Source of the DNA: Hydrolagus affinis
Lineage: Eukaryota
Length of the DNA stretch: 56,055 nucleotides
Direction of reading: 5' to 3'
Assembly (NCBI GenBank): GCA_012026655.1
Contig: JAAILG010002295.1
Span: 1 to 56,055, forward strand
Part shown: positions 523-33,032 of the stretch, piece after piece
How positions within the stretch are numbered: the first letter of the stretch is position 1
How the letters are laid out: every line of letters starts with the position of its first letter
Notes under the pieces: model-generated
What the model was told of the DNA's origin: nothing
The model's database searches: none
The model's input: the letters and a program-made list of their open reading frames with translations, nothing else
Translations under genes and position numbers: made by a program

Positions 523-3500
523 CTTTGAGTCACTCACAGCTGGCTTCAAGCCAGCCATGTTGGCAAAGTACTGAATAACCTTCTTGGTGTTTTCTGTCTT
601 CCCAGCACCGGATTCTCCACTGGGCACGGAGAACAGTAACAGGATTACATTTTGTGGGGAGAAATAGAGTAAGTAAAATGTTTCAATTTAGCCCCAAATT
701 AATTATTTTTATCGGCAATGTTTTGACTATGGAGCTGAAATTCTCTTTTGTTAAATGTTACATTTGCAAAGAGTTACGCAAAATACTGAAGCAATGAACA
801 AATGGAAAAAGTCCAAACATTGGATCAATTAATATTTTTCTGAATGCATATTCAACAAAACACTCAATTAATAAATAAATGGAGAAAACTTAACACAAAT
901 GTTTTTTTTGTGTCATATATCTAGGTACAGTAAATGCTAATTTCGGCGGTGGCTTATTTTTGTATTGTAAACCAATCACACCCTGTAAAAGTTTATACTT
1001 CTGTATTTCGTGATCTGCTTATCAACTTGCATTTAGGAGAGGAAACATATCTGCGAAAAGCTACTTACGTGATGAGCATGGACTGATTTTCACGTTCTGT
1101 GGAAGGAAAAATAGAGTTCAAGATACTTAAGATATCGCGCACTATTTTACAAGCCTCAAAGACCCAGAACTGCCCAACTCTTGAATGACCTGCAGTGTTC
1201 CTCCAGCAGGAATGAACGAAAGAGCTTCAAACATGTGGGAAACACAACCGACTGAAGAGAATTGTAAAATAAATCCTTGGCATTAAAACGACCGCAAATA
1301 ATTTAACTTGATGCGTAGAAAGGAAGAATAATGGGGTATTTAATATCTCTTGTGTTGTTCCTGTGTCTGCATTTCTTATTGTACAGTCAATTCGCTTTAC
1401 AGTACAGAATATATTCTGTGAAGCGCCTTGAGACACGGTCTAGAAGACGCGATAAAGCCGCTAGATCAAATGCCAGGATTATTATTTCTTGCGTCTCCGA
1501 GGTGGAAATCGGACCAAGTAACTTCCTATTGTCTAATATGTTTCTCCCGTTCTATAGCTATGACAGGACTGTGTTGCGCCCAAGTCTCTCTTACCCATCA
1601 ACATGTCGTGGTAGGCGTTGTCAGAGATGGAGAAGAGATGAGGAGGCATCTCACTGCGTTTCTTGCCCTTGTACATCCGAGCCACTCTCGCGCCATAGAT
1701 GGGCAGCCACTTGTAGGGGTTCACTGTCACGCAGAACAACCCAGAGTAGGTCTGCAGAGAGTCAAACCAATAATATATACAGTCTATACTTTCCTCAGAA
1801 CAAACAGTTTTAACATCTTCCGACTGTGTTCATTAGACACCAGACAAATTGGACATCTTTGAAGACTGTCAACTGAGGAAGCGTGACATGGACAGGAATG
1901 GATAATTCTTTTATCTCATCCAACAACTACAACAACACAATTACACTTGTCTAGTGCCGTTCAGGTCAGGAGGATGTCCCAAGTTACTGCTCACAGACCC
2001 GAGCTGAGGACGGTGGGGGTGGGAGGGAAGGGGGGAATTAGGAGTTACCGATGGGTCCATCGCAGAGAAGATTCTTGAGGCGAGACTTGAAGGAGGCCAG
2101 GGAGGGGGGCGAGGTGGAGGGACTGCGGGATGGAGTTCCAGAGATCCTACAACTGGCCTAAAGTTTTGCCCCAAGCCGGGAATCAAAGCGGGTGGTCTCG
2201 CTGGTGCTCTAACCCCACGGGCAGACTTACATAGATTCTCATCTTGAAGTAACGCTGGCGGAGGTTGTCGAGGATGCTGGCCTCATTCAGGAAGGTCAGG
2301 TTGGCCATGTCTGTGGCCTGGTAAAACTTGGGGGGATTCATTTGGTCAACTTCTTCTTTCTTCAGGGTCAAAGTCTGCAAAGAAAAACAAACTTTAAATG
2401 TCTAGAGTTTATCAGTAATTTATTATATTGGCGTACAATAAAACAACACATAATCCAACCAACGGACCAGTTAGATACATGTTAATCTCTGAAATTAGAC
2501 TTGATCTTAGTCCGTTACATCTTAAAACGGTGGAGAATGATGGAAAATTCCTCAATTCGGTCTTTAGTTGGAGGTTGGTTTCCCCCGCAGTCGTTAAAAA
2601 GAAACCGGTTTTCCAATGGAAGGATATTCCACAATTAAGGGCGACCTTTAAATTTTTACGGCCGATGTTACAGGTTAAGATGAAGTGACATTTCAGGCTG
2701 GTATTTAGTGATATCCTGTTCTCTTCACTAGTACAATAAAAGAGCTCCATTCTCTTTACATCAAGATTTACCCATAGGTTATGCAGAAACTAAACCCCTT
2801 GTTTTCAGTTAAGGAGGATTCCTTACTCTTTAATCTAACTAGAATTTTAGACGACATGAAAAGAAATAACAGAATGACTATAATATATATAAAAATAATA
2901 AATCCTTCCATTTGATATAGAGGCTTTTCACATCTTATCAACGTGTCAAAGCTGCTTCACAGAATATACTGTCAAGTGAATAGACTGTATATATTTGTGG
3001 GCGAAACGCGGCAGCCAATTGCACACAGCAGCGTTTCCTCCCCCCCCCCCCCACAAACAGTCGTGGGTTGAAAATGACCAATTTTTATTATTGTGTTTTT
3101 TTGGGGGGGGGAGTGGGGGTGAGGGGCGGATTATCAACCCCTCGATCGCTCTGACCTTTGACAACTGGGATCATTTGCTGCCACTTATGCTCAGAGATTA
3201 GATAGAAACCAACAGGGACGGGTTGCAAAACACAAGGCACAATAATTATTTCTTCAAAAACTTTAAAGTATATATTTTTTGGGGGGGTGGGGGGGTGGTA
3301 GGGACGGGGTGGGGGGGAGGGACGGGACTTACGGTGTTCTTGACAGTCTTCACAACGACTTGGTCACCTTTTTCAGTCTGGATTTCACCTGCAATATAGC
3401 CCTCCTTGTCATCCTTGACCCAACAGGACTTCTTAATGTCGTAGGGTTTGTTGACAGCTTCCAGTTTCTCCTTGTCGGATGGAGCCAGGAAAAGAATGGG

Positions 3501-3536
3501 ATCCACGTCTTCACCACATTCTCCTTTTGTGGCCAT
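523..3536 (-). CDS. MYH16: Myosin heavy chain 16 (superfast/masticatory type), copy A; 5' five coding exons, gene continues beyond the left edge
   Basis: GT-AG exons 3536-3333, 2374-2231, 1751-1595, 1096-1069 and 619-523 splice in frame to [40 protein letters not shown]...[22 protein letters not shown]...[19 protein letters not shown]...[27 protein letters not shown] (P-loop). The N-terminus KGECG.DVDP..FLAP and PPKFYQA are MYH16-type. No lesions in the visible part. Confidence 0.9.
1921..2175 (-). mobile_element. L2-type LINE 3' fragment with (GTT)n tail
   Basis: Similar to 29460-29700. Related short copies at about 4755-4835, 5717-5890, 17945-18040 and 44195-44450. Confidence 0.65.
2890..3100 (-). 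mobile_element. Partial SINE; further partial copies at about 1382-1486(+), 5055-5345(+), 6730-6990(-), 12400-12520(-), 24555-24690(-), 28795-29017(+), 36290-36404(+), 38740-38840(-), 47598-47710(-)
   Basis: Shared core and tail CAGTCAATTCACTTTACAGTATATTCTGTGAAGCGCTTTG...CAAATGCAAGGATTATT. Confidence 0.75.
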
Positions 3537-6604: not shown

Positions 6605-6704
6605 NNNNNNNNNNNNNNNNNNNNNNNNNNNNNNNNNNNNNNNNNNNNNNNNNNNNNNNNNNNNNNNNNNNNNNNNNNNNNNNNNNNNNNNNNNNNNNNN
6701 NNNN
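6605..6704. other. Assembly gap (100 N) flanked by a duplicated 99-bp overlap
   Basis: 6506-6604 is repeated exactly at 6705-6803. Confidence 0.95.
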
Positions 6705-11587: not shown

Positions 11588-11844
11588 TTTATTAGCAACA
11601 CTATCTCAGGGATCCTACCTACACCTCAGGGAAATAGGTGTGAAGGAATGCAAGCAGTAAAGCAGTAAGATTATTGCTGTGTGATGGCAAGCAGTAAACA
11701 GATAGTTCATTGAGAACATAAGTAAAGGAGATGGATCAGAGTTTGGTCCATAGGAACATATTCTTCATATGTACCTATGCCCCATACAAGCCTCAACTCT
11801 ATTTCTAACCCACTCTCCCATACGCTATTCTCTCTCTCTCGCTC
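11588..11844 (-). other. MYH16: Putative non-coding terminal 3' UTR exon of MYH16 copy B with polyadenylation signal
   Basis: Donor CTG|GTAAGT at 12060/12059, 17 nt after the stop codon. Acceptor TTACAG|G at 11845/11844. AATAAA at 11593-11588. Confidence 0.5.
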
Positions 11845-13885
11845 CTGTAATTAATAACTTACTAATTCTGTGGGACAGCCTCTCGACGTGAAAGGCGCTG
11901 TATAAATGTAAGTTTTGATTGATTGATTGGTTGATTGGTTGATTGAAGTCACAATAACACAGTATGGCACTATGGTTAATGCTTGGAATGTTATTATTGG
12001 TAGTACTGTAGTATTAATTCATATCATAAAACGCCCAGAAAGAGCATGAGGGGACTTACCAGCTAGAAGATGGAGCTCAGGACTCGGTTGACTTGGAGGA
12101 TGAGGACGTTTTGGCCACTTGGATGATCTCGACCGAGGTGTAGCCTTTGCCATACGCAGCGCGGCTCCTGGTGCGGAGTTTGTTGAGGGTGGATTCCGCT
12201 ATTCCCGCTCTCTCCTCAGCGTCGTCCAGCTCGTGCACTGTGTGCCTGTACTTGGTCAGGCTCTGGTTAGCCTGCTCTTCCTGTGTCCCAGAAAAATCTC
12301 AGCGTTACAATGGAGCCATTGGACTGCGCAGCTTAACTGTTCAACGTAAACACTACCTGACCAAACGTCAATACACCTTTTTAAGATTTAACGATCCTTG
12401 GCATTCGGTACAGCGCCTTGTCACATCACCGAGACTTAGCTGGAAACACGCACTGTAAACTGAACTGACCGTATTTTGTGGGTGAAACATGGCGGCCAAT
12501 TGGCACAGCGGCGTCCAGGTTACACACTTTGATTTGCCAACACATCACTTCAGAGCAACGTTACAACAACTCCTAGGCTTCACCTGACAGCCAGTCAAGC
12601 AGCCTGTACCCCATTGTGAGCTGCATCAGTCCCACGCTTGGTTTGTCTTGACTCTACAAGTTAGCTGCCTCGACTTCACTGTGATGTTCCTATGATGTGC
12701 AAACGCAATACGAGAGGCACTCACGGATTCCTCTATCTGCCTCTTGTAGCTCTTGAGCTTGCCCTGCAGTTTCTCCACCAGCTCCTGCATGCGCTGGTTG
12801 GTTTTGTGGTCTTCCTCAGTCTGGAAGACCAGCTCCTTCAGCCGCCGCTCATTCTTGTGCAGCGCCTTCACCGTTTCAACGTGGCGTTTCTGCTCAACAT
12901 CCAGCTCGCTCTCCATCTCTTTAACCTAAACCGCGGGGAGGGGAGGGGAGGGGAGGGGCAGGTTAAATAAGTAGAGGCACACATGCACATTTGGACAGTT
13001 GTTACCAAGGACAATTCCCTCCACTGTTTGTGTTACGTACCCTGGCCTCCAGCTTCTGAATGATGCGACGGCCTCCCTTGATGACTATTTGTTCGGACTC
13101 TTCCAACTTGACCATCAGGTCCTTGATGTGGAGTTCCTGGTTCTTCTTGGTCTTCTCCAGGTGCATGCAATGGTCCTGCTCCTGCCGCAGCTCCTCCGAC
13201 ATGCGGGTCACCTGCGAACACGACAAAGCGGAGGACGTTTACATCCTCACCACACTGAAAATAACCCCAACTTTACTTATGGCATTAATCTATTTTGTGT
13301 GTGTGTGTGTGTGTGGGGGGGGGGGGGGAGGGGAACCCCCCCCACACAAAATAGTGTCAAATAGACTCGCAGGTCAAGGGCAATACCAACCAGAACAAAG
13401 GTTGCATTGGCTGAGGCACAGAACTCAACTCCAACCGAAGAAGAGCATCTTCCATTGGCATTTCCAATATTCCCTTGTCCAGAACAATAACTGAATGTTA
13501 TTGGTGCTGAATATGGGCTCATCTTGGTTCCAACCCACTGGGCATTGGGACTGGAAACGGTGGGTACACGGACGCTGGATGGGAGAAAGGCACGTTGCAT
13601 TTGGCTGGATGGGGGGGTGTCCCACACTTACATCGACCATGGCTTTCTTTGCCTTCTCATCAGCCACACGGAACTCGTGGATCAGCTCCTCGTACGTGTT
13701 TGTGAGCTGCTGAAAGTCGTACTCCAGCTTCCGCTTGATGGTCACTATGGTTTGGTGCTGCGGAGAGAGATGGCCTGGCCAGTTTAATCACTTCACATTG
13801 GGATTTCCTTTGCAGAAGGCAGACATGAGTTACTGAGCCCTGACTGACGTGTGATCCATCACAGACAATATCCATCAAGGTCCAC

Positions 13886-14210
13886 AATATAATAATATTA
13901 ATAATCCTTGCATTTGATATAGCGGCTTTTCACATCTTATCGATGTCTCAAAGCGCTTCACAGAATACACTGTAAAGTGAATTGACTGTATATTTGTGGG
14001 TGAAACGCGGCAGCCGATTGCGCACAGCAGCGTCCCCCACAAACAGTTGTGGATTGAAATGACCCATTTTATTATTGTGGGGGTTTTTGGAGGGATTATT
14101 ATGAGGCGTGTGGACTAAGGAAACTTGCCCAAGGTTTCGCTCTGATCTGCCTGGATTTGAAACACAGGTCTCAAGCTTGTAAGGCGAGCGCTCTAACCAC
14201 TGAGCTACCT
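13886..14210 (-). mobile_element. Full-length tRNA-derived SINE (shorter head variant)
   Basis: Head GTAGCTCAGTGGTTAGAGCGCTCGCCTTACAAGC with the same core and tail. Confidence 0.85.
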
Positions 14211-14751
14211 TCTGCGGAACGTAATAATCTGTGCATTTAATACACCATGTTTCACATCAGGAAGATGTGTTAAAGCGTTTCACCAGGGTTTACTGTGAAG
14301 TGACTCCTCGAGTATTGGGGTGGGTTTCCGGACAACCCAACTGAGCCCAATAGAGAAAGTTCAGACAAGGGCGAGGTCGGTGTTTACCTGCACGTTGATC
14401 TCATTGTATCTCTCAGTGATTTCAATGATCTCTTGTTCCATCAGTTTGCGAGAGCGTTCGCTGGCCTCCAGGGCGCTGCGGATTTCCTCCAGCTCCGTCT
14501 GCAGCAGGCTGACCCGGCGTTCGGAGAGATTGTACTGCTCACGAAGCTCCTCGTGTTGGCGAGAGTCTTCGTCCATCTGAGTTTGCATCTCCTGAGGTGA
14601 GGGAGGGAACAAAGAATGTGAGGGCGACCAGTCTGGAAATCTTGAACGCACATTTTAATCAACTAAATTCTCAACAGCTTCATAATTATTATCGGGACTT
14701 TAAAGAATTTTTCAAATTTCTGGGTGGGTTGAAAGTTTCCAAATTTATGTA

Positions 14752-15097
14752 TTAATAATAATAATAATCCTTGCATTTGATATAGCGCTTTTCACATCTT
14801 ATTAACGTCTCAAAGCGTTTCACAGAATATACTGTAAAGTGAATTGACTGTATATTTGTGGGCGAAACGCGGCAGCCAATTGTGCACAGCGGCGTCCCCC
14901 ACACAAACAGTCGTGGATTGAAATGACCAATTTTATTATTGTGGTTTGTTTTTGGAGGGATTATTATTAGGCGTGTGGAGTAAGGAAACTTGCCCAAGGT
15001 TTCGCCCTGACCTGCCTGGATTCGAACACAAGTTTCCCCAGCTTGGTCTCCCCAGCTTGCAAGACAAGTGCTCTAACCACTGAGCCACAGGAGCTCC
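14752..15097 (-). mobile_element. Full-length tRNA-derived SINE
   Basis: Same structure as 9174-9521, with B box GTTCGAATCC. Confidence 0.85.
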
Positions 15098-18000
15098 ACA
15101 AATTGTGGATTGATCAATTGAGTAATGACTGTGAGAAATTTGAGACTTTCAAGATATTGATCGAACATCGGACTCAATAACAAGGTTGATTATTGTTGGA
15201 ATAGAATTCTATTAAAATCACCTTGAGCTGCTGCTGGAGTTTCTTGAGGGTTTTGACCAGCTCCGCGTTGTTTTTGTTGGCGTGGTCCAGTTGGATCTCC
15301 ATCTCGTTCAGGTCCGATTCCATCTTCTTCTTCAGCCTGAGAGCCTCAGCGCGTCCCTTGGACTCCACCTCCAGGCTGGCCTGCAGGGACTCAATAGCGC
15401 GTTGGTGGTTCTTCCTGCGAGTGTACATTAAGACACCGTGAAATGGAAATGAAATCATTGAGAGGCATTTTACTGAGGTGGCAGATTCTAAAATGTTCAC
15501 TGTTAACCCGGAGAAGGAGAGAGAGCGCGCGAGGTTACACTGTGTACCTGGTGATCTCGAATTCTTCTTCCTTCTCATGGATCCTTCGGTCAACGTCTGC
15601 CTTGACCTGCGCCAACTCCAGCTAAAGACGGACAATCTTACCTTCTTGGACCTGAAGAGATAGAAACCAATCAGGACACAGCAGCCAGTAACGTGGCTCC
15701 CAGTTCTGACCTGGGTTTCTTTTGTTCTCCCCTCTCCGTTTGAACCTTTCACATCACTTATCGTTCTCGAGGTAAAGTGTCACATTGTAGGCACTTGTTG
15801 GATCTCAACAGGATCAATAACACACCCAGGATGCTCCAAAACTGTACCAACATTTGCGAGTAAAAACTTACTGTCAATTATTATTAATGGGGTGGGGGCG
15901 AGCCTCTCAATCAGTCTAAGTCTTTCAATTGACCTGTTCTTCTGTTGCCACACATCATGTTGGGATTGCCTACGTTACCTCCAATGTAGCTTCACTCTCC
16001 TCCAATGCCAACTGCAGTTCCTCCTTCTCAATCTCTAGCTTCTTCTTTATCTTCTGGAGCTCATGGATGCTCTTCCCACCCTCGCCAAGCTGGTCCACCA
16101 GGTCTTTCACCTCATCTGAAGAGACCACAAAAGAGAGGGTGAGTTCACCAGATTACAGCAGTGGGCATGGCACAGACTTGCCCCCAAGTCATCATCAGTC
16201 AGTCACAGATGGATAAGATGATCCATGGAGTAACTCACAAACTTCAGTCCACACTGGATGTGGGTGGGTGTGAGGGGGAAGTTTAACTCGGTGTCCTGAC
16301 CAACATCTGCCATATTTTTTTAAAAAATGTCGCTCACTTCATGGCTGTTTTGTGGGAAGTTTGTAGGCATTTTGCAGGTGTAGGTCACTATACTCCACAT
16401 TAAATTCTGCAAAGCGCTTTGTGAAATCCCTCCGATGTGAAAGGCACTGCATCAAAAACGCAAGGGTTATTACTAATTACCTTGCAGATTTCTGTTCTCC
16501 TTCCTCACACTCTCCAGCTGGTCCGTAACTTCTTCATACACGGTCTTGAGTTTGTAGACCTCAGTCATGTGGATCCTGCATTCCTTCTGTGAGACGTCTA
16601 ACTGAATCTGTAACTCCTCATACTTCTGCTGCCACTCAGCCAGCGTCTTGTCAAAGACTCGCTGCTTCTTGTCCAGGGCAGCGGCTGCAGCGTTGGCCTG
16701 AAGGAGAGGCCGCAGGAAAACAATTACTAAGAAAAAATCAATTAAAACTTACATTTATATAGCGCCTTTCACGTTGAGACGATGTCCCAAGGCGCTGTAC
16801 AGTCAGGTAGGGACAAGAGCAGAGGGGGAGGGGTCGGGGCAGTATGAAGAAGAGTAGGAAAATTGACTGTATATTTGTGGACAAAAGTCTGTCACACATA
16901 TAGATATAAAACAGCAATATAGTCTGAGGATTGTTTCTCCCAGGGCACTGGGAGAATTGACTTTCTGTTTTTGTATTCGTAGCATCTTTAATACGAAATT
17001 TAGAAGATGTCAATTTGTACCTTCTCCAGTTCAATGGTGAGATCCTCCACCTCCCCAGTCAGTCTCTGCTTAGCTTTCTCCAGACTGGAAGCCCTGGCCT
17101 GGGCTGATTCCGATGTCTCTTCAGCCTCCTGTAGCCTAGCTGCCAGCTTCTTCCTACAGACGGCAACAGAGAGAGAGAGAGTTTTGGAATCTGTACACTT
17201 GTCACATCGCAATCTCACTACTGGTATTTATAGTATGTTATATATTAATCTAGTATGTTATATATTAATCAGGCTGTATATTATAGTATGTGAGGCTGAC
17301 ACTCACTTGGTCTCTTCCAGCTCCTCTGTTCTCTGGATGGCATCTGTCTCATACTTGGTCCTCCATGTGGTGACCTCAGCGTTGAGTTTGGAGATCAGGC
17401 GCTGGAACTCAGACTTGGCCTCTTGCTCTTCATCGAGCTGCTCTCTTATCAGGGCCAAGTCATGCTTGGCATTGGCCAGGCTCACCATAGCCACACTCCT
17501 CACCTGCAGCACAACATCGACAGGATCAGTCACGGAAAGGAGTGTTTGCATTGCTCCTTTCACATTGGGAAAGATGTCTCAAGTCGCTGGGTTTCACTAA
17601 CAAACATTATTTAAGTCTTGTACAGTCTACTAGCAATGACATAATGCTTGTGACTTGCCCTCAGGAAACTCTCTGAAGCAGTTGTCATCTCCCTTTTCAG
17701 CCACATAACTCGCTGATCGATGGGTTAGCCACAAAACCTCCCAAAGTAAGGTTTGCTTTGCTGACTTCTGGTTATTAGTGCAAGTCGCAATGGTTACTGG
17801 CAAATGAAGACACAATTCTGTCCACTGACAGACAGACACTGCAGACTCTTCACAATTGAATTTTATCCCCACGAATGTCTTTATTTCCCTGCAGTTTCAA
17901 ACCTGTGAAATTTCCATGAAATCACAGCCGTAGCAACGGTGCTCGGGTCCCGACCTGATCGTCCAGCGCCTTGGGACGTCCTCCCGACGTGAAAGGCGCT

Positions 18001-18696
18001 CTATCAATGTAATTTTGTTGTCGTCGTTGTTGTTGTTGTTGCTTTGACCTCGGCCTCCAATGTTGTGTTGCTGTGTGTGTGTGTGTGTGCCATCCACCAG
18101 CTCACCAGCGCCGCCACCAGGAGGCCGGTGTGTTGTACAATTGCAGTACCTCCATTGTCCATTGGGAAACTACTATATGCCAATGCTACACTCTCTGAAA
18201 TACTCAATGATTATATTTGAGTCAGTTCCTTTCACATCGGGGTGGAGGGGGAGGGGGGAAAGGCACATCCTGGGATACACTATAAAGTGCATCGACCGTG
18301 TATTTGATTGGCCGACGCAGCAGTCAATTTGGCCGTAGGTGACGTCTGACAAACAGCCACCATGTGAATGAACAAGCTATAGATGACACATGTCTATATC
18401 TGGAGATAATTCGAGAGAAAAATCTGCTGCTCATCAAACACGTCATCGTCACTCTCATCCCCCAAAGAAACTCTGACTCAATCCAGTGAGGAACCGACTT
18501 GGAGCTTGTCTCACCTTTGACTCCTCCTCGGCCTGCCTTTTGAAATCATCCACTTGCGAGCTCAGGGTAGTTTTGATCCTGGTCACCTGGATCAGTCTGC
18601 TGTTGGATTCATCGTACGTTCGGCTCAGCTCACTGTTTTCGGCTAGAATAATAGAAGGTCTGTCTGGTTACGTCTCTACTGAGTCAGTGAATTTCA

Positions 18697-18723
18697 GCAG
18701 CACCACCACCACAACAACAACAA

Positions 18724-18755
<32 letters not shown>
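18697..18755. repeat. Compound (CAC)(CAA)(CAG) trinucleotide microsatellite, intronic
   Basis: Read directly from the sequence. Confidence 0.9.
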
Positions 18756-21700
18756 TGTCCTGTATTCACACAGCCAGACTTCCCGCAGGATAAGGTCTCA
18801 CTGATCTTCACAGTGTCAGGGAATCAACACTGGACGAGGGAAAAGCGGGAAGCTGAGCACAGGTGATCTCGAAGAGGTAGCGTTAAAGGCGTTTAACTGT
18901 GCGATTCACATTGCTATAGTCTGTGCTGGATGTTGTACAGGAGATTTAGCCGGAAAATGGGATCTCCTTACCCCGGAATTGTTTCCCAATGCCGGTTAAT
19001 TCCCAACATCAGTAAATCAGTCCAGATGGGTTTTGCAAAATCTGGATACTTTCCAACAGGGGAAAGATGGGAACAATTTTCTAAAGGTTTGATATCTCCT
19101 CACCAGGCCTCTTCCCACTCAGTAGAGAGTGCCATCAAGGCAACTGGTTTGGGCTTCCTAACTCTGGGAAAGGCCGGTGACCAATTTAGCCTCCCTACCC
19201 AACCCTGCCTGAAACTAGTAAACTCAGGTCTATCCATTAAACAACTAGGACTGGCCCCAATTGTTATGCTTCCAAAACCACCCTTTACATCTGAAAAAAC
19301 ATATTAACTTTCAGATGACACCATATTCACAGGGCCAACACATAGCGGTTCCGTGTTAATTCCTCATTCCCCCTGTCTTGTAACTTTATCACTGCTTCCT
19401 CCCACACACAGACCATTGAAAATAATCCAGCAAAAAATCCAGCATGAACAGCAGCAGCCGTGGCTCCTGGATGGCTGCTTGTGAACTGTAATGAGACTGG
19501 AACAATAGGGACAGATCAAACGCAAAAGAAAACTGAGAGGAAACCAGATCAGTCCAGGAAATTAATTTGTCTGTTTTGACTGTCATTTTTTTAGGGGGCG
19601 CAATAAATTGTGTTACTGTACAGGGCGTTGGGACCAGGGACCAAACACACACCCAGAGGCAAAGAGACATCAAACCTTTTTGGGAAGTTGTTCAAATCTT
19701 GTCCCTATTAGAAACTGAATGAAATTCATGAGTAAGTTGACACAAGACATATAGCTTGCAGGCTGTAAAGTTTGGCTGGTTGAGTTTGTGTGGTCGTCCG
19801 AATGAGTGTGTTAATCTGTGACCTCCAAAGTTCTTAGCTGTTGAAGCACCACTGTCCCGCAATCTCACTTTGTATTAGCCCATCATACCTTACAATTTAA
19901 GACAGTGCAGAATTGAGGGATATTTCTCAAGTTCAGTCTTACTTCAGAAGCCGTTCAGTCCGAGTGCTGGAGAAAAACGCGTTCCAAATTGAGTCTGAAT
20001 TTAAGAACTTTAAGAATTCTGCGGCATTCGACTTGAAGATAAAATGGTGTTGTGTGTGTGTTGTGTGTATGGTGGGGGTACGATAAGATTAAACGTTGTT
20101 CCTTTGACAGCAGATGATTATTAACTGTGCCTAACCGGTGAGCCTGGTTTTCAATCCATTGAGTTCTGTTGTGTTCCTCTCCATTTCAGCGAGTTTAGCA
20201 TTGGCCTCAGCGAGGCTATCCTCCAACTTCCTGACATGCATCTCAGAGTTGGCCTATTGCAGGGGAAGAGCAAGGGATGGTAATTTCCCAGTTATTGAAA
20301 CAATAGAACAACATCAACCCGCAGGAAGAAGCCATCCTCGCACCTGCGTTTGTAGTGTGGAGTATATTTCAAAGAGATTCTCAAAGTTACTGTACAGTGG
20401 TGTGACTGTGCATATGTGTGTCCGAGTCCGGCAGCCAATTTGCTCACTGCAGTGCTCCACAAACAGCGCAATAGTCAATAGTTATTTTATAACCTCGGGG
20501 AATTGTTAGGCAGGACACGCAGAGAAAACTCTCTTCTTTAAGGGAAGGCTTGGAACGAGGAAAGGGTATTTTCACTCTGCCAATCTCTCCCTGCTCCCCC
20601 ACCCCCTCCCACCCCAACCCTCGGGTTCCTTTGGCTTTCTGACCTTGGTTTTCTGCGAGGTCTCTAGGTTGGTGCTCAGGTCGTCGAGCTCAGCTTTCAT
20701 GAACTGCTTGTCCTTCTCCAGTTTGTTTTTGACCCTCTGCAGGTTCTCCACCTGCTCGGCCATCTCGGCCATGGAGTCGGAGTGTTTCTTCCTGAAGGCG
20801 GAGGCGGTGGCCTCGGCCTGAAGCGAGGCTTCCTCCACCTCCCGCCGCAGCTTCAGGAGCTCGATCTCTCGCTTCTTGTTACTCTCGATCTGTGTGGGCA
20901 GAAGAGAAGAGGGGGCAAGAGGGTGGGGGAGGGTAGGTGGGGGTGGGGGAAGGAGGGGAGATGTGTCAGCCCACCCAAAATATGGCGTACTGTAGGGGAA
21001 ACGTCAAACTGTCGCCATATGTGTGACAACTGTGATGCACAAGTCAGATTTTTGTACAGTTGATGTTACTGTATATAAAATACACTTCAATATCAATGCA
21101 CCAGGCAGCTAATGGTGTTCCGAGGTCTTGTATGACAACGACAACAAAACACCAACATAAAATAACTGCTGTGCGCTTTGTAGGATGAAACCTCTATCAC
21201 AAGGGTGGGGAGGGGCTGGTGTACGGAGTACCTGGGCCACCGTGGCACCACCAGCTTCCTCCAGTCTGTCGTTCAGATCCTCCAACTCCCGCGAAAGCTC
21301 AGCTCTCTGCTTCTCCACCTGAACACATCAGAAAAGCGGGAACATCAGATACCTTTGGCACTTTGGACTAGCTAAGCACAACCTGCTGCCTCTCCACAAC
21401 AGTCCAGTGGCCTAGATTGGCAGCAGTAACACTGACCCAGGGGTGGACCAACACACTCACACACTCTCACACACACTCACACAGTCTCACACACACAAAC
21501 ACTCTCTCTCACACACAGTCAGTGACTGATTTCTCTTGTCAGTATAGTTGATAGTACAGTCCTATTGGGTTAAAAAAAAATGAGTTCCCATTTTATGCAA
21601 GACATGAAAGGTTTCCTAATTATAGAAACAATGGCAGAGGGACAGGAGGGTGGGATTAGTCAGGTCAAAGGGCCTTCTTCACCAGAACCCAATTATTGTA

Positions 21701-22577
21701 TGTGATACAAAACAGTTTGGAACACTTTTCAGTTCTAGTGCAAAGGACAAATGTTTAGTTACACCCTGCCCTGGGCTCACCTTGGATTTCATGTTACGCT
21801 CTGCCTCAAGCTCCTCTTCGAGCTCTTCAATGCGTGCCTGGGAATCAGAGAGTAGCCCATTACCATACAATTCCCTCCCAAGTCATCACAGATTAACATG
21901 TCACAGTTCCCAGCATCTGGGCTGGACTGTACCTGATGCTCCTTGAATTTCCTGTGCAGTGTGGTATTCAGTGACTGTTCATCTTCCCACTTGCTGTTGA
22001 CAGAATTAATCTCCAGTTCCTTCCTGTAACGAACAAAAGGCATCTGAAGGGCTGGGCACAGAACCACGGGTCAAAAGCATCACAGTTGGCAAATAGTTGG
22101 GGGGGAAACGATTCGTAACGGAAGCTTTTAATGTTTCCACCAGATCTGGGAAGGCTTGTCTTCTCAGAAAATTTGTTGGTGGCTTCGTTTTCCAGATAAT
22201 TCGGCGACTACAGATTCACGGAACCCTCTACCATTCTCAAAGTGCGTCAGTACAAAGTTTATTTTATGCACGTTTCACTGGCTAGAGGACGAGGCTGTTA
22301 GGCTGCCTTGTCTATCAGGCGAGTTCGCTCACAGACGTAGGTTACACACTTTTTGAGCACCTCCTCCAGATCAATCTTGGAACGCTCCATATCATTCAGG
22401 TTATCGATAGTCATTCTCAGGTCTCCCTCAGCCTTCCGCCGGGCCTTCTCCACCTCGGCCCTGATCTTCTTCTCCTGGCTCCAATTGTCTTCCAGCTGCC
22501 AATTCAACACAATGTGTTAACGGTGAAGGAGAGTTTGGTGTTATCCCCACCGCACACAGGCACATGTTGAGAACACT

Positions 22578-22760
22578 TAAAATCATAGGATCTTACAGCA
22601 CAAAAGGAGGCCATTCGGCCCATCAAGTCTGTGCCCTGGCTCTTCGAAAAGAGCAACTCAATCCCACTCCTCAGCTCTCTCTCTCTCTCTCCCCATAACC
22701 TCGCAAACCCGTCCTCCCCAAATAAACGTCTACCTCTCTTTTTAAAATGTCTACCTCTCT
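22578..22760 (-). mobile_element. CR1 LINE 3' fragment
   Basis: GGAGGCCATTCGGCCCATC...GTCTGTGCC, similar to 37010-37070. Confidence 0.7.
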
Positions 22761-23117
22761 TAGGGGGCAACTGAAGAAAAAAAAAGGTCACCTGCGTCCC
22801 ATTACCTCTTGGATCTGAGAGTTCAGTTTGCTGTTGCTCTTGGTGAGGTGGTTTACTTTATCTTCCTCGGCTTGAAGGTCGTCCAGTGTTTTCTACAGAG
22901 AGAAAGAGTGGTGGCCGAGAGTGAACGATGTGGTGATGTGACCCTGGAATGGATCCCCGGTTGAACGCGGTTAGCGGACGGTTTGACCGTCAGTGTCGCA
23001 CCTTACCTGGTACAGTTCCTCCAAGGCTTTCTTTTCCTTTATTAGCTTGGCAATGGTGTCGTCACGCTGACTGACATCCTGAATCAGGGAGCGCACTCGT
23101 TTGTCCAGCGACTGCCA

Positions 23118-23167
23118 GAGGGAGGGAGGGAGGGAGGGAGGGAGGGAGGGAGGGAGGGAGGGAGGGC
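23118..23167. repeat. (GGGA)n microsatellite
   Basis: Serves as the polypyrimidine tract for the minus-strand exon 23111-23007. Confidence 0.9.
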
Positions 23168-24769
23168 ATGAGAACAAGGTTATTAAAGGTTGAAGAGAAA
23201 CAAGGTATTGTCAATTACAGAAGGACACAATCAGATCCATGGGTTGGGTTTTATCGGTTTAAAAAAAGGTCGGTGAATGATTAGAAATAAGTGGATACGT
23301 TGAGACCACTGTTTTTCCCGTGATTTACAACAACAACAAAATGATATTGACAGAGCAGCTCATGTTCTGAAGCGCTGAATCAGAGGATTCCCAGGATGGA
23401 GTTCCAGAGAGTGGGGGCTGAGAGGCTGAGAACCCTTTCTGGCTCAACCCCAGCTGAGTGGAAGATCAGCAATCCCTAGCGCAGGAGAGAATGGTACCTG
23501 CTTTTCTTTCTCCGTTTTGGCCAGAGTCATCTCCAGAGCCTCCAGGTCACGCTTGAGGTCGGTTGTCTCCTCCTCCAGCTTCCTCTTGGTGGCCGATATA
23601 CTAGAGGAGATGTTCTCCTCCTCTTCCAGCCTCTCCTTCATCTCGGACATTTGGCTTTCTAGGTTAATCTTGCTTTTCATCAGCTGAGTGCATTTCTCCT
23701 CCGCGTCAGACATGTTGTCTTGCTCCTAGAACCACAGAAACATAAAAATTTAACAGAGCAGAAGTAAGCTTTTCGACCTGTTGCGTCCATCCTGGATCTT
23801 TTTTAAAAAAAACAATCCCTTTATTCCCATTCGCAGAAAGTAATTGGGCAGGTTCAACTGGTTTGGGTTCTTGTTGAATACTCGCTGGCTACTTACTGCC
23901 CGCAGTTGTATTTTGAGATCATTATTCTCTTGGGAGAGACTAGCTGTCTTCTCCTCCAGATCCTTCAAGCGTGCAAGTATCTCTTTGGTCTTCTCCAACG
24001 CTGTCCTTAGTTCCTCCTCTTTCTGCTTCATGTCTTCATCTTGACGAGCCACGTTGAGCAGAGGCTTGACCTGTGGGTATTTCCAAGGGCAGTGTAAGAG
24101 TTCCAGTAAACAGCCACAAGGTGTTGGATTATACTATCCATGTTTAATTTGCAGTAGCTTTACTGTAAGCCTGTGCTAGTGTCCCCTCTAAAAACAGGCT
24201 CAGTGGAGGCTGATAGTACAACACAATTCCTCTGGGATACTCACCTTAGTGTACAGCTTCCACCAACCCCAGTAACGCAGTTGTAGGAATTTGCGAATGT
24301 TTCGCTGAATGACAATCAGTGCTATCCTGCAAACAAAGTAGAGAAATTGTTAGAGAAACTCTGGAAGCCCAAACCCTAATGAGTAGGTTGTCTCTAGCTG
24401 GACAAGCGGTGGGAAGCTTTTGCAATGGTTTTGAGTTGGTTAAACTCTAGTAGTGACCCCACCCGCACACATTTGTCGGGTCCCCAACAACCTTTGACTC
24501 CTGACAAATTGCACCTAATTCTTCCTGTGATTAAGTAAACAGGGAGTGTGTCCACAATAAATAATAATAATAATCCTTGCATTTGATATCGCGGCTTTTC
24601 ACATCTTATCGACGTCTCAAAGCGCTTCGCGGAATATACTGTAAAGTGAATTGACTGTGTATATTTGTGGGAGAATCGCAGCAGCCAATTAAACATAAAA
24701 CATTTTAAAAAATTAAACACTGAACGTAAAGAACAACAGCATCAACTTGCATTTACAGAACACTTGAAC

Positions 24770-24928
24770 ATTTTCAAGGCTGAGACTGATAAATTTATTT
24801 TTAAAAATAGAGGGATTAGGGGATATGGGGATAGGGCAGGTAATTAGAGTTAGGTGAGAATCAGCCATGAGGCTCGAGGGGCTAAATGGCCTACTCCTGC
24901 TCCGACTTCTTATGATCTTAAGTTCTTA
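24770..24928 (+). mobile_element. CR1-like LINE 3' fragment (second subfamily)
   Basis: GGGCTAAATGGCCTACTCCTGCTCC followed by a TTCTTATGATCTTA tail. A reverse-orientation relative lies at 26780-26920. Confidence 0.6.
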
Positions 24929-26779
24929 ACACCCTTCACATGGGTCAGTGTTTCAGGTCTCACCTTGTGTCCAGCATCCTCTTAAACTCCTTGCGCATCA
25001 GATTACCACGTAATCGACACTGCAACATTGTCAGGATCTTCGCCAGGCGATCGTCGCGCATGTCTTCCAATTTAGCCAAGACCCCAGCCCGGAAAAACAC
25101 CTTCACAACAGAGAGAATAATAACAATAATACTACATTATTATTATTATCGTTATTATAGAGAATACACATGAATGAGCATTTGCCATCCTTATCGAGAG
25201 TAATTTCCTGCTTATTGGCACAACTACTTCTTGTGGTATCAGCGCTTTGTGACATAAAGGCGCTATATAAGTGCAATTTTGTTGTTGTATTTCATAATAC
25301 TGTGGTAATAATGTTTGCATTTGACAGGGCTTACATCACCTGAGACTCCACCACTCTAAACACATAAATAGAGTAATTCTAGACTTGTCTGTCTGTTCTA
25401 CCACTGGGCAGCAATTCCCTTTGCAACATTAAGATTGTGCAGAATTGTTTTCCAATACAGTGCTAATCTGGAAATATATATAGTTTTTATACAGTTCTTA
25501 TAAAGAAACTGGTTTCCAAATCCCGACTGGACTGAAAGAAAAGATTCCACAATTCTGCGCCTTCTTAAATTTAAGGCCAGACCATCTGGTCTCCAGTTTT
25601 ATTGCCATCGGGAAAGGCATCAACGATACCATTTAGTATTTTGCATAAACACGATTTGAAATAAGAAGCTGTATGTCTGGTGCTTTCCGCCGCTCACCTT
25701 TGTGTGTCCAATTTTGTACTCGTTTTCCTCCAGACCAAGCGTGCCCAGCAGAAGGTCTGAGGCCTTCTTGTTGTCAATGAAACCCTTGGGGATGACGTTG
25801 GGGTTCAGGATGTAGTACCTGAGCAACCACAAAACACCTTTTCAAACACCAAGTTTGTCTGATGTGACTTGCGCTTTTCAAACATATTCTAACCATAAAC
25901 TAAATCTAGAAATTGCATTCGTCAAGCGTTTCCACCTCACGACCACAACCGATCTTAGATTAGATCCTTGCCTTTGACAGAGCGCCTTATTATCATTGCC
26001 ATTGATGTCTCAAAACAGCTTCACAAAATATCATTTCTGATTTATTATAATCCCTGCGTGTGATGTGCCTGTAAAATACGCGAACGTCTTGAAGAGCTCT
26101 TCCGGGTTTACTGCAAAGTCTCGTGTTGCGGCCGTGTATTTTGTAGGCGAACGGGGCGGATGGGGGGAGGGGGGGGGAGGTGGTGGGAAAGTTTCAGTCT
26201 CGGACTCACCGCTGTTTAAACTCGGGATACTGCAGCCTGTTGGGGAACCCTTTCCTGCAGATTCTGATTCCCTCCAACACACCATTGCAGGCCAGTTGGT
26301 GGAGGATCAGGCCGGCGTCCACCGCACCTGGAGGAAGTGACTCATTGCTGACCAGACTCACAGCTTTTTCCTGACGCTCACTATCGTCCGCCACTCACAC
26401 TTTGGAGCCAAGAAACGTGATACATTTGCATTGTGTGCCCGTACCTTACATCGAGGCCCAACCTTCCACCTTGGCATCTGTCTGACCCCCTCTCACCCAA
26501 AATATTTCAGTTTCAAATTTCAGATTTCTCCAATTGGTTGTGGGAAATCTGTACATTTGGCCTAAATATGGAACAAGTTTGTTTTTTATGAACCAAAATC
26601 CATTTGCTGAGAGGGTTATTTGACGGCAGATCTCACTCTATTCTTTAGAAAAAAAACCTTCTTCATTCCAATTGCAAAGCTCCTGGAATCTATGACTTGC
26701 TGGCTACATTCACTGCAACATAACCGGAGAGAAACTGTAGGCAGTTCATGCTTAGTGTGTGAGATGAGCTGGTTTTTTT

Positions 26780-26920
26780 TTAGGAATTAGGAGCAGGAGT
26801 AGGCTATTCAGCCCCTCAAGCCTGCCCCCCGCCATTCAATAAAATCATGGCTGATCTTCTAATCTAACTCCGCCTGCTCCCCCTTATCTCCATATCCCTT
26901 AATAACCTCTACCCTTTAGA
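26780..26920 (-). mobile_element. CR1-like LINE 3' fragment
   Basis: GGAGCAGGAGTAGGCTATTCAGCCCCTC...ATCATGGCTGATC. Confidence 0.6.
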
Positions 26921-27049
26921 AAGCCTTGTTGGAGAGTGATTCTGCCGTCCGCCCTACCTGACTGCTTGTTCTCGTTCGGTACGATGCAGCGGACAAAGTG
27001 GGGTGCCGTGCTGCGGAGTGTGGTCATCAGCTTGTTCAGCTGCTCCTGT

Positions 27050-27128
27050 GCTGAGAGACAGTGAGGGAGGGACAGTGAGGGAGAGACAGTGAGGGAGAGA
27101 CGGTGAGGGAGAGACGGTGAGGGAGAGA
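27050..27128. repeat. Tandem repeat of about 14-16 nt (GAGAGAC[A/G]GTGAGGGA)
   Basis: About five copies directly adjoining the acceptor of MYH16-B exon 27045-26958. Confidence 0.85.
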
Positions 27129-29459
27129 TGAACCCACACCAGCCACAGTTCTGAAAGAATCCTCTCGTCGTCTTCCATTGTACAAATTGTCCACCCCACT
27201 AAACAGAGCGGAAGGTGGGAGCAAGGTACACAACTATTCTTCGTTTAAGAACAAGGGCACTCTTTAATGTTCTCGACCTATCCTAGCAGCCTTTGATTCT
27301 CCCACTCCCTCCAACCATCCCCCACCCCCCCCCCCACCACCACCCACTCCCATTGGCGGAATCAATCAATGACAACTGACGCAGAGAAAGCTTGTTGCTC
27401 TTACCCGGTAGAACGCAGACACGGTCTGGAAGGAAGCTCCTTTCTTCTGTTTTTTGGTGGTACCTGTGGATGAGGAACACACGAGGAATATTTAAAATCA
27501 GGTTTATATACTTCAAGCCGCTACCGGCGACAGATGCCCACGGACGCCACAGAGAGTACGGCCCTGATTCAGATCAATCAATACACGGTGTGACTCACAG
27601 CGTTTTTTTTTTAGGGATTATTATTAGGTGTAATTATTATTTCTCGTGTGCTCTGAGGAAAGGAATACATTGAATAACTCACCTTTGGCTTCTTCTTCTT
27701 TGAAGAGAGTGGCTAATATGTTCATGGAAGACTTCTGGAACAAGCCCACCACTGTTTCGTTCAGGGGATCCTTATTTTTCTCCAGCCACCCTTGGGTGCT
27801 GTACCCAACCTTGAGATGTGAGGAGAATGAAGGTGGAGCATAGATTGAGAATCACAGAGAACATACAACGTGGTTGGAAAACACAATGAACGGAAATATT
27901 TGGTGAAATCCTGATGGATACTCACATTGCCCGCGTAGTGCACCAGCTCAAACGTGGCCTCTGCTCCCTTGCCTTTGCCACCTTTGGGTTTCAGGAAGTT
28001 GTTGGACTTGCCCAGGTGATTGTCGTACAGGGCAGACTTGAACGTGGCGTCCGTGGCCTTCGGGAACACGCACTGCTCCTCCAGGATGGAGAAGATTCCC
28101 ATGGGCTGCAAATACATCGTCAACAAGGACAACAAATGACATCTGTGCAGCGCCTTTCGCGTCAGGAGAACGTCCCAAATACAAATACATCCCCAAACAC
28201 AGACGGTCAAATGCAAGGATTATCCTTGTTATTATTATTATATGAAACAATGTTCCCGGCAGTTTGGTTACAGAAATTGGAGAGCAGCAAACTGACCTTC
28301 TCCAGCAGCTCGATGCAGGCCTGCAGGTCCATGCCAAAGTCAATGAACACCCATTCGATCCCTTCCTTCTTGTACTCCTCCTGTTCCAGGACGAACATGT
28401 GATGGTTGAAGAATTGCTGCAGCTTCTCGTTGGTGAAGTTGATGCAGAGTTGCTCAAAGCTGTTGGACTGTGGGACGGAGGGAAAAGGCAGAGCAGAGAA
28501 TGAGGCTCCCTTTCTACCCAAGATTGCTCTTAATTCGTAACCTTTTTATAGCATATGAGCAGATAGAGAAGACCATGGGGCAAACGCCCACTGAATAAGT
28601 ACATTTCCCCTCTTCTCTCTTAAATATGCCATTCGATTTTGCCTCTACAGCCTTTACTGTCCAATCTTAAAATTTTAAGTCAAAAGAAGGTCCGGCCTTG
28701 TGAATGCAACCCAATGTTTTTAATGTGCTATTTTAAAATATTTAATGTTAAAATATTTATATATACACCACACTGGAGTGGATAGTCCGTCCAAAAAAAC
28801 AACACAATAATAAAAAAAATTGGTCATTTTCAATCCACGACTGTTTGTGGGGTGGTGGGGGGACACACTGCTGTGCGCAATTGGCTGCCGAGTTTCGCTC
28901 GCTCGCCAAAGTCAATTCACTTTACAGTATACTCTGTGAAGCGCTTTGAGATGTCGATAAGATGTGAAAAGCCGTTATATCAAATGCAAGGATTATTATT
29001 ATTATTATTATTATTATAGCAGACGGAGTCGGAAGCAAGATTCCAAAGAAATTGCACCAAGCGAGAGGCACTGTTGTAAACTGTATGTTAACTGGGAGAT
29101 TTCTATCAAAACTGCCAAAGGATTAGCTGCCAAAACGTGCATTGTGAAATCCTGTGTCACAGTGGGGAAGATCAGTGCCAACGTCTCCATTACCTGAGCA
29201 TAGCATCAAGCATTACTGTTGACACGGGGCTGCCAGTAAACCTTTACCTCAAAGATTTCAAAGCCGGCAATGTCCAGCACGCCTATAAAGTGCTGACGCT
29301 GCATCTTAGTGTCCAAGGTCTTGTTAATTCTTACAACCATCCACTTGAACATTTTATCGTAGACGGCTTTTCCTAGGGCACCAACTGAGTTGGAGCACTG
29401 AGAAAGAGAGAGAGTAATAACAAGATTATTACCAGCAGTGAATAGAATTCCAACCACAG

Positions 29460-29862
29460 TAAAATGACACTTGTGTAGACAGCGCCTTTCACGTCTGGAG
29501 GACGTCCCAAGATGCTGGACGTCCTTGTTTCAGACCCGAGCTGGGATCGGGGACAGAGAGGGTGGAGGGAAAGGTGGGGGATTTGGGGTGACCGATAGGA
29601 CCATCAAAGAGGAGGGTCTCGAGATGCGACTTGATGGAGGTTGGTGAGGGGGCGAGGTGGAGGGACTGTGGGATGGAGTTCCGGAGTTGGGGACAGAGTG
29701 GCTGAAAGTGGGATGGTTGGTTGGGAAATGTGGAGCAGGCCGGAGAGGAGGGCAGGTCACTGAGCAGAGGGAGCGGGCAGGTCGGTAGAGGGTTAGGACA
29801 TGGCAGAAGTAGGGTGGGGCGAGGCCATGGAGGGCTTTGAATGTGAGACCAAGAGTGCCCAA
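29460..29862 (-). mobile_element. L2-type LINE 3' fragment
   Basis: Peptide LTFKALHGLAPPY...YRPARSL is typical of the L2 ORF2 C-terminus. The 3' end GGGACGTCCTCC..ACGTGAAAGGCGCT is shared with many short copies. Confidence 0.75.
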
Positions 29863-31869
29863 AAGTAATATTTGTCTATCCAGCGTGTCCAGGCCAGTGA
29901 CTGCTCTGTGGGAGGGGGACGTTCTTTTGAGAAATTGGTGAAAGACTCACCTGGGCCACATTCTGGGCTTTCTGCACAAACTCGTTACCAACTTTGACCC
30001 TTCTGGAGCTCCCCCGAACTGAGAGCCATCAAGTGGGAGACTTTGTCGGCCACTGGAAACGAGCAGACAAGGAAACCAACTGAGAAAAGGCAGGAGATGA
30101 ATGTCTTTGCAGATCCAGTTGCTATTTACAAAGGCAGGATTCAGCCTCTTGGAATATACTCATGGAGTACGTTGGATTTCCTTTGAAGAGGAAATAGACA
30201 ATTGAATGGGAACCAACAAGTTGGGGAGGGAGGGTGAGAGATATCAAAACAGGATTGAAATGCTGTTCCTTAAATCAGGATCTAGAGTGTATGAGTTTAG
30301 TTGGCCCATCTCATATATATTTACGTTAAATCTCAGAGTCAACAACTAAACATATCAGTCTCTGAGCAAGGCTAAAGCACTTGTTGTGGCCGTACAACTG
30401 ATTCCCAGCGGAACATGATGCGGGAATCCATCAGCCCCCTTGTAATCTGTTTTGTCAACACCCGAGACAAATTCCCCAATACTCCCAGGTTTGGAGCAGG
30501 TTGGGTTACAATGTGTGAGTAGACAGCATGGCATTCAGCCTGTATTCTAGTGCGGGGCAAATGGTTAGGCCACAGAACTGATTGATTTATTGATCGATCG
30601 ATCAGTCGATCGATTGACTGACTTCAAGTGAGTCATTCGAATCGCTTGCTGCTATTTGGCTGCATTAGTAAGAGTGTAAGTGACCGACCTTCTGTAGTTT
30701 CGATGTCGGCCTGCTCATCCCTGGACTTCTGCTTAAACTTCATGTTCCCGAAATGCATGATGGCTCCGGTCAGCTTGTAGACACCGTATTTCTCCTCAGT
30801 GGTGAAGCCCAGCACATCAAAGGCTTCCTTTGGAACAAAGATTTAATTTATTCCACGCTTTTAATGGACTATTTAAATAAAAGTATCGTTTCATTTCCCA
30901 TCAGAAATGTTATGTGAAAATGGAGGCAAAATAATGTGAGATTTTTCCCATTGGGCAATAATAAAGCCACTGTCAAACATTTCACATCTGTTTGGCTTGT
31001 CTGTTGAACCACTGGGAGACTAGGGGACCCACAAAATTGTCTTATCTCCAGAGATTGCTTGCGTTTGGATAAAATGTTCCAATTTAAATCTTCCGCCGTT
31101 GTCAATTTAAGTCTTTGAATCAGTATTTCCCAATGTAACCATGAAAACACAGTCAACCAGGAGTGACACTGATCTCACATCGCCAATGTTGGCCTCACTT
31201 TGCAACCCAGACTGTGACGCACGCACGCACGCACACTCTATGTGTGTGGAAGTGTAAGACTGAGAGACGTACATCAGTCAATCGGAGCTCTTCACCATCA
31301 TCCATGTTGTCCACCACAGTCACACCCTGGCACACCCAACAGTACTGTTTCGGATCAGGCATCAACAGCAGCATATCTGGCAAGAGACGGGAAAGTGAAT
31401 AATTCAGAAACAAAGGTAAGAAGCCTTCCGAGAGTCACGCGATTCACAGTGAATAGTGACTCACCGATACCATCAGATTTTTTTTTGCTTGAAATTGGCT
31501 CAAAGACTGTAATGTTGAGACTCACCTAAAATGTTTGGTATATTCCCAGAGAGGAGCTGGTAGAAGATGTGGTAGCCTCGCTCAGCATGTTGCTGTGAGA
31601 TGACTCGAGACTTTTCTAACAAATCTGGAAACAGGAGGACCCGAAATGTAGGAGAGGGAGAAACAACAGGTTGAGAGAGACCCAAGGAATATCAAATATA
31701 CTGTACATCATAAAATATAATTGCACGTTCAATGTTTTCAATAACACGAGTTGTAACAAAGTGAAAGATTTGCTTACAGCTTTCAATATCAGCACCAGCT
31801 AGTTTACCAGATGGGCCAAAGTGAATTCGGATAAATTTACCCTGGAGAGAATTGAGGGTGGGAGGAGAA

Positions 31870-32165
31870 ACACAAGATTAGTGAATTGTTGTTAACTCTG
31901 TTGTTGTTTGTATGGTTGTTGTTGTTGTTGTTGTAGCTTGAATGCGTCGGGAAATATGAATTTTCATGCTGAGGATTGTGAAACTGGAAGGTAACGTCTC
32001 CGATTTCCAGAGAGCGGGTGCGCGGGAATGGTTGAAAGCCACGGCGCGCCAACGGTGGGGGCAGATAGGGCCGTGGACACCAAGACAGACAGGGTTTGCT
32101 GGGTGAAGGGAGCAGCCGGGTCCTTGTAGGGGGTTGAAATGAAAGATGTAAACTCAGGAGGTGGT
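31870..32165 (-). mobile_element. L2-like LINE 3' fragment (other subfamily)
   Basis: Purine-rich ORF2-end-like sequence (PYKDP...PTVGA) next to a (GTT)n tract. Confidence 0.45.
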
Positions 32166-32679
32166 GGGGGGGGGCGGGGTTTCACAAACATGTCCTGCAG
32201 ATGTATCTCAGATTATAGACCAACGGGAAGGCTACATGAAACGCTGAGCTTTGGATATGATGAAATAGGGGGAAAGACTTACAAAACGTGACGAGTTGTT
32301 GTTCCTGGTGGTCTTGGCGTTACCAAAGGCCTCCAGCACAGGGTTAGCCTGGATGATTCGATCCTCCAGGGAGCCCTACATTAACAGAAAGAAGAGAATT
32401 ACACAAACAAAAGAATGACACAGTCTGTCAGAATGAGTAAACGCACGACACTTGGATTGGAACAGCCAGCCTGCTCCTTTAGCTCCAACCTCCAAAGCAA
32501 AATAAGAAAGGTTCACACATCGGCTGCCATCACACATTGTGCCACTGGGTGCTGTCCCTGTAACCATTGAAAGGTAAAGAGATAATACCGAGGTTGTTTC
32601 CCTGTAGGTTGGTTGATAATATGGCAGCAGCAAACTGGGCGGGAGATTAAGCTTGCTGCTTCTAAAACACATTTAGAAC

Positions 32680-33032
32680 CACCTGTAGCTCAGTGGTTAG
32701 AGCGCTCGCCTTACAAGCGTGAGACCTGTGTTCGAATCCAGGCAGATCAGGGCGAAACCAAGTTTCCTTATTACACACACACACACACACACACCTAATA
32801 ATAATCCATCCCCAAAAACCACAATAATAAAATTGGTAATTTCAACCCAAGACTGTGTGTGTGGGGGACGTTGCTGTGTGCAATTGGCTGCTGTGTTTCG
32901 CCCACAAATATATATACAGTCAATTCTCTTTACAGTATATTCTGTGAAGCGCTTTGGGATGTCAATAAGATGTGAAAAGCCGCGATATCAAAGGCAAGGA
33001 TTATTATTATTTTTTATTATTATTATTATTAT
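32680..33032 (+). mobile_element. Full-length tRNA-derived SINE (shorter head variant)
   Basis: GTAGCTCAGTGGTTAGAGCGCTCGCCTTACAAGCGTGAGACCTGTGTTCGAATCC, followed by the core and an (ATT)n tail. Confidence 0.85.

Follow-up and report, generated by a model that had tools for sequence, protein, structure and literature searches.

MYH16 encodes a high-force myosin of jaw-closing muscle; sharks are reported to have it, and the human gene is a pseudogene (PMC6402096; PMC11050549). The human gene, with 42 predicted exons, is described as disabled by a 2-nt deletion in exon 18 (PMC6402096), and further losses are listed for pangolins, anteaters, armadillos and the echidna (PMC6402096; PMC12906968); ant-eating mammals have lost the gene repeatedly, their copies carrying as many as 47 lesions (PMC12906968). 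A literature search covering main texts, few of them from subscription journals, found no account of a holocephalan MYH16 duplicate or pseudogene. The one paper found to contain the terms myosin heavy chain, Callorhinchus and MYH16 has a single passing mention of MYH16 (PMC6558913), and the word 'myosin' is absent from the main text of the silver chimaera genome paper (PMC12952989).

The window considered here is the whole stretch of DNA that was analysed, 56,055 nt from the chimaera Hydrolagus affinis (assembly GCA_012026655.1, contig JAAILG010002295.1). It holds a MYH16 pseudogene (copy B) and the first exons of a paralogue (copy A), and the coordinates of these and other features are given in Table 1. 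Like the human and other mammalian losses, as far as these are described in the texts cited above, copy B is unprocessed, has kept its introns, carries a motor-domain frameshift and gathers further lesions with time. The mammalian losses concern a single-copy gene, whereas the loss of copy B leaves copy A, of which at least the first five exons are intact, and there are two lesions in copy B of this holocephalan host, as against 10–47 in several mammals. If this context holds, the recurrent loss of masticatory myosin, so far documented in mammals, reaches the cartilaginous fishes.

Table 1. Positions of the features discussed, numbered along the window.
Feature	Position	Strand	Basis or remark
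MYH16 copy A, exons 1–5, 210 codons open; C. milii myosin-16 (P0008) orthologue	523..3536	(-)	alignment; remainder beyond window
Gaps of exactly 100 N	6605-6704, 43460-43559		assembly
Dispersed repeat copies (examples)	9179-9521, 14750-15096, 13889-14208, 32682-33024, 39171-39472		
First polyadenylation signal of the AATAAA/ATTAAA type downstream of the copy B stop	11588..11593	(-)	motif scan
Pseudogene MYH16 copy B, 43 coding exons from ATG to TGA; C. milii myosin-16-like orthologue, 93% identical	12077..35668	(-)	spliced alignment, trees
Lys1892His, exon 43	~12245-12243 (approximate)	(-)	conserved-site test
Exon 37 of 43 of copy B, 104 nt, phase 0 to 2	15548..15651	(-)	spliced alignment
Weak in-frame AG sites that could bypass the stop: TAG itself (+30 nt) 3.9 bits, +36 5.1, +45 5.7	15606..15623	(-)	predicted
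TAG nonsense codon Q1556*, light-meromyosin rod, conserved Gln1556	15622..15624	(-)	spliced alignment
Internal donor-like site of exon 37, strong (11.0 bits; true donor 5.4); use would shift the frame	15636..15644	(-)	gene's own matrix
Exon 11 of copy B, 102 nt (119 expected), 17-nt frameshifting deletion	29951..30052	(-)	spliced alignment
Premature TAA from the frameshift, after residue 400; 32 exons downstream	29985..29987	(-)	spliced CDS
Breakpoint of the 17-nt deletion; placement ambiguous by 1 nt or more	29998..29999	(-)	spliced alignment
Copy B exon 3 with some 20 nt of intron; counterpart in copy A at 1576-1754, identity 98.3%	34240..34418	(-)	likely A-to-B conversion tract
Importin-alpha gene, intact, head-to-head with copy B; nine exons, 486 open codons	45478-52735	(+)	

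Structure and identity of copy B

A purpose-written spliced aligner was used to place C. milii myosin-16-like (P0003, 1946 aa) on window positions 36200-11800. It recovered 43 coding exons, from an ATG at 35668 to a last codon at 12080, aligning over all 1946 P0003 residues with 132 differences (lesions included), the exon 11 lesion being the only indel; the spliced coding sequence is 5824 nt long rather than the 5841 nt expected, i.e., 17 nt short. All 42 introns are GT-AG and the spliced alignment revealed no third lesion in the 43 exons beyond the exon 11 deletion and the TAG, which bears out the original prediction of a gene with its exons and splice sites otherwise intact. The encoded protein has the full layout of a class II heavy chain (SH3-like domain, motor, coiled-coil tail), collinear with P0003 over the 43 exons, the Pfam domains behind this layout being those precomputed for P0003.

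The assignment to MYH16 comes from several comparisons. P0003 is 76–82% identical to MYH16 proteins versus 57–59% to other myosins, and the exon next to exon 37, searched against proteins, has C. milii MYH16 as its best matches (97–98% over 64 residues). In a rooted tree with four fast/slow outgroups, copy B falls inside the MYH16 clade, apart from the fast and slow sarcomeric myosins, with a support of 100. Copy B has kept its introns at the parental locus and its disabling lesions, defined against an intact orthologue, are present in the assembled sequence, as in an unprocessed pseudogene. P0003 is its one-to-one orthologue (93% identical, a level that marks the window as coming from a holocephalan other than C. 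milii), and the C. milii database model is intact, with Gln1556, which the TAG replaces in copy B, and the GITRPR stretch, most of which copy B has lost.

The nonsense codon in exon 37

A TAG at 15624-15622 on the minus strand, at about codon 1556 and in place of a conserved Gln, had been claimed at the outset. The translation of the exon agrees with this position, the spliced alignment sets the TAG opposite Gln1556 of P0003, and Gln is found there in 104 of the 106 named full-length MYH16 proteins among the matches listed, the exceptions being Thr in Rhinatrema and a poorly aligned Myotis gene model. This set consists of the best 120 matches minus 10 unnamed records and 4 proteins shorter than 1700 aa, and contains three C. 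milii models of the copy B orthologue. Among proteins shorter than 1070 aa, the best 120 of 1148 matches (59–67% identical) included no chimaera fragment of the same lineage over residue 1556, which is weak evidence. Apart from the TAG, exon 37 is identical to P0003 (33/33 residues); it is flanked by a canonical AG and GT, with a strong acceptor (12.2 bits) and an average donor (5.4). The earlier claim of a CAG-to-TAG change holds in part: the TAG is seen directly, whereas its ancestor is deduced from codon usage. Since CAG is the sole Gln codon one step from TAG, and since 92 of the 117 Gln codons of the copy B gene are CAG, we infer an ancestral CAG altered by a C-to-T change.

Taken alone, Q1556* would remove the last 391 residues, corresponding to 35% of the rod. 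The stop lies 74 nt upstream of the next junction and 969 nt upstream of the last coding junction; the rule for nonsense-mediated decay is a stop more than 50–55 nt before a junction. The C-terminal rod holds the assembly-competence region, which is needed for filament assembly. The TAG would, thus, be a null even without the deletion, because the decay-rule distance is exceeded and the assembly-competence region would be removed.

Splice sites were scored with the gene's own sites, the acceptor matrix being built from 41 other acceptors of copy B. The stop might be bypassed by splicing at the TAG itself, at +36 or at +45, giving a rod shorter by 10–15 residues (10, 12 or 15 for the +30, +36 and +45 AG, respectively), or by readthrough at UAG-C. 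The three in-frame acceptors, at 3.9–5.7 bits, are within the low range of the real acceptors of copy B, and the base after the TAG is C, a leaky context. We nevertheless consider such a bypass very improbable, as the true exon 37 acceptor, at 12.2, lies upstream of these sites, the C-to-T change lowered the acceptor score at codon 1556 from 6.2 (as CAG) to 3.9 (as TAG), a value reached by 7.6% of 1615 decoy AGs, and a bypass of the TAG would be pointless with exon 11 frameshifted. Two other routes were discarded: a micro-intron between the internal donor and the TAG would, at 20 nt, be too short and out of frame, and skipping of exon 37 alone (104 nt) would shift the frame. The internal donor-like site, only 10 nt into the exon and with twice the score of the true donor, may be ancestral or may represent a hidden third lesion.

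The exon 11 deletion

The 17-nt deletion lies about 14.4 kb from the TAG and takes out the greater part of GITRPR, a motor-domain stretch that is nearly invariant. The resulting frameshift ends translation at codon 401, 1155 codons ahead of the TAG, and the TAG is predicted to be silent because the frameshift, if in cis, would halt the ribosome there. The deletion and the TAG are probably in cis and could have arisen in either order, as each would be a null on its own; any copy B mRNA still made would be expected to be destroyed by nonsense-mediated decay. Rescue of the frameshift by splicing appears unlikely from the site scores: the frame-restoring sites in exon 11 are weak (acceptor at 29991, −3.7; donor at 30042, −2.8), and their use would delete part of the motor. 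An AG located 27 nt upstream of the exon 11 acceptor (30079, minus strand) scores 10.9, versus 8.7 for the site used; it is in frame, and its use would leave the frameshift unrepaired.

The in-frame ATGs located 79–127 nt past the first stop open frames of 1106–1122 codons that end at the TAG. It could be imagined from this that the TAG was selected because it blocks a re-initiated, headless rod that would poison thick filaments, but this is extremely improbable: ribosomes re-initiate only very poorly after a frame of 400 codons, such an mRNA should be degraded, and selection is superfluous given that neutral decay already accounts for the data.

Mutation or error

Copy B carries both lesions in an otherwise intact gene, its C. 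milii orthologue is intact, and its amino-acid changes are mostly conservative. The reading that we regard as probable is that the TAG is a real C-to-T change, acquired during the neutral decay of a recently dead chimaera MYH16 paralogue, and that it is a predicted silent second hit, the jaw-muscle function presumably being covered by copy A. By itself, the TAG is unremarkable, being the second lesion of a gene that no longer works. Its use is that of a clock and a control; a second lesion makes a biological loss of copy B more probable.

Neither lesion is overlapped by a tandem repeat or is a 1-nt homopolymer slip. For a nonsense base-call error somewhere in the coding sequence of copy B, a probability of 0.024 was calculated at Q40 and of 0.21 at Q30. 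The TAG is a single substitution and could, therefore, be a base-call error in the consensus, in which case the deletion would be the sole lesion; the chance of such an error reaches 21% per gene at Q30 but only 2% at Q40. This is, however, distinctly unlikely. The change is a transition, the commonest kind of real change, and errors would predict about four radical changes at invariant sites for each nonsense change (targets 952 versus 242), as against the one seen, which requires two base changes. Moreover, the neighbouring genes used as controls, copy A over exons 1–5 (210 open codons) and the importin-alpha gene over nine exons (486 open codons), are without lesions.

The argument that two different types of lesion make a single sequencing error unlikely is sound in that one error is ruled out; it does not extend to one shared haplotype. 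Both lesions might be real but heterozygous or in trans and joined by a collapsed assembly, with intact copy B alleles segregating. The whole of copy B is on a 36.7-kb contig between the two gaps; the assembly is gapped and the region is scaffolded, so that the lesions, 14 kb apart, may be out of phase, and the neutral age estimated below (0.0005–0.003) is comparable in magnitude to the nucleotide diversity of a shark. We consider this arrangement rather unlikely, and it would change the biology little, two independent nulls in one animal themselves implying relaxed selection.

Age of the loss and selection

Selection on copy B was assessed at 1017 sites conserved at ≥98% in 103 outgroup proteins, a change being counted as radical at a BLOSUM62 score of −1 or lower. 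The window has 11 private changes at these sites and C. milii has 2. Only one of the 11 is radical, versus 45% expected of random missense changes (P=0.013), and the share remains low at other thresholds (1/15 at 95%, P=0.002; 4/21 at 90%, P=0.014). The sole radical change at the ≥98% sites, Lys1892His, lies in the C-terminal rod and takes two base changes. The scarcity of radical changes indicates that most of the divergence arose under purifying selection and that the neutral period was, therefore, short. As a protein-level proxy for neutrality, the mostly conservative changes of copy B are as expected for a recent loss and carry no clear neutral signature.

If the second lesion and the radical changes, i.e., one or few events, are taken to postdate the knock-out, and a kappa of 2 and 0.03–0.08 indels per substitution are assumed, the neutral divergence since the knock-out is 0.0005–0.0027, with upper 95% limits of 0.003–0.006 and lower limits near zero in the one-event cases. 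The knock-out is, thus, inferred to date to about 0.05–0.3% neutral divergence. Under neutral decay, the probability that a second lesion appears before more radical changes than observed is 0.56–0.93. The epaulette shark has a mutation rate of 7e-10 per generation (95% CI 1.4–14.1e-10) and a nucleotide diversity of 0.002 (PMC10587355). With this rate, borrowed from another lineage, the point estimates correspond to 0.7–3.9 million generations since the knock-out; the second lesion, thus, implies that selection has been absent for a time that is long in generations and short in sequence terms. Because the age estimate and the shark diversity of 0.002 are of the same order, they fit fixation of the loss as well as a neutral null allele that still drifts. 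The original prediction of recent pseudogenisation or a segregating null allele can be refined in this light: the loss is recent, and a two-hit null, if it segregates, would be an effectively neutral allele rather than a young deleterious one, because about a million generations would be needed at the shark mutation rate.

The terminal branch is longer for the window than for C. milii (0.052 versus 0.027; 70 versus 49 polarised changes, P=0.07). An early relaxation of selection, well ahead of the knock-out, was considered as an explanation and is unsupported, because the rate excess is also present in copy A: over the first 210 residues, the window and C. milii have 12 and 6 changes, respectively, for copy A, and 10 and 11 for copy B.

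Duplication history and gene conversion

Exons 1–5 of copy A are closer to C. milii myosin-16 (P0008) than to P0003, and these two C. milii proteins are 82% identical. P0008 and elasmobranch MYH16 are orthologues of copy A, forming a clade separate from the B lineage, to which they are about 81–82% identical. The rooted tree has the topology ((window B, P0003),(P0008, sharks)) with a support of 99, all trees being quick searches with SH-aLRT support only and a long copy B stem. A recent lineage-specific duplication, with A and B in a clade within holocephalans, was rejected by AU tests in two tree sets (p 6e-10 and 6e-123) and under a mixture model (p 0.007 for the head, 6e-5 for the rod); the same test rejects both a grouping of B with bony vertebrates and a position of B outside all other MYH16 (p 0.002 in each case). 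The duplication, thus, likely predates the split between holocephalans and elasmobranchs, dated to about 401 Ma (PMC11521621). Copy A, which had been proposed as a comparator for dN/dS, is poorly suited to this purpose, as the two paralogues are 82% identical in C. milii and parted long ago, before the shark-chimaera split; the fitting comparator would be the C. milii myosin-16-like coding sequence, together with other chimaeras.

P0008 and P0003 are each on a C. milii contig of 16,789,714 bp, consistent with a tandem pair, an arrangement that the window and C. milii would have in common. Among the best 120 of 8000 proteins scored, no elasmobranch protein was more than 81% identical to P0003, and the four elasmobranch clusters all group with copy A. 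This comparison was made at the level of clusters, so that the eight members of the P0003 cluster could include an intact chimaera orthologue, and a 90% cluster a shark duplicate; the pattern suggests that copy B was lost in sharks and rays.

Exon 3 differs from the rest of copy B in its similarity to copy A: the two are 98.3% identical over the 179-nt tract, versus 71–89% in the other four comparable exons, and copy B exon 3 has one residue difference from the A orthologue, versus four from the B orthologue. The tract is likely the product of A-to-B gene conversion in this lineage, and its three mismatches argue against a simple assembly collapse. No signs of conversion were found in exons 11 and 37. 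Conversion from copy A was rejected as the source of the TAG, exon 37 having no difference from the B orthologue and seven residue differences from the A orthologue.

These observations point to a second ancient MYH16 lineage, kept whole in C. milii and lost here. A wider history is offered only tentatively. Early cartilaginous fishes may have had two masticatory myosins, following a tandem duplication more than 400 Myr ago; copy B would have been lost in sharks and rays and kept under strong selection in chimaeras, its loss now starting in this lineage after A-to-B conversion began, perhaps in step with bite mechanics or diet. A comparison across chimaera families is, thus, opened, of jaw-muscle myosin content with tooth-plate crushing force and diet.

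Neighbourhood of copy B

Scans for promoter motifs in the window gave nothing informative. The importin-alpha gene has a plausible last exon of 29 codons from 52645, and is a candidate KPNA7, the neighbour of MYH16 at the human locus. A repeat of about 350 nt, which resembles a SINE in size, is also dispersed through introns and intergenic DNA, in copies that are 77–93% identical.
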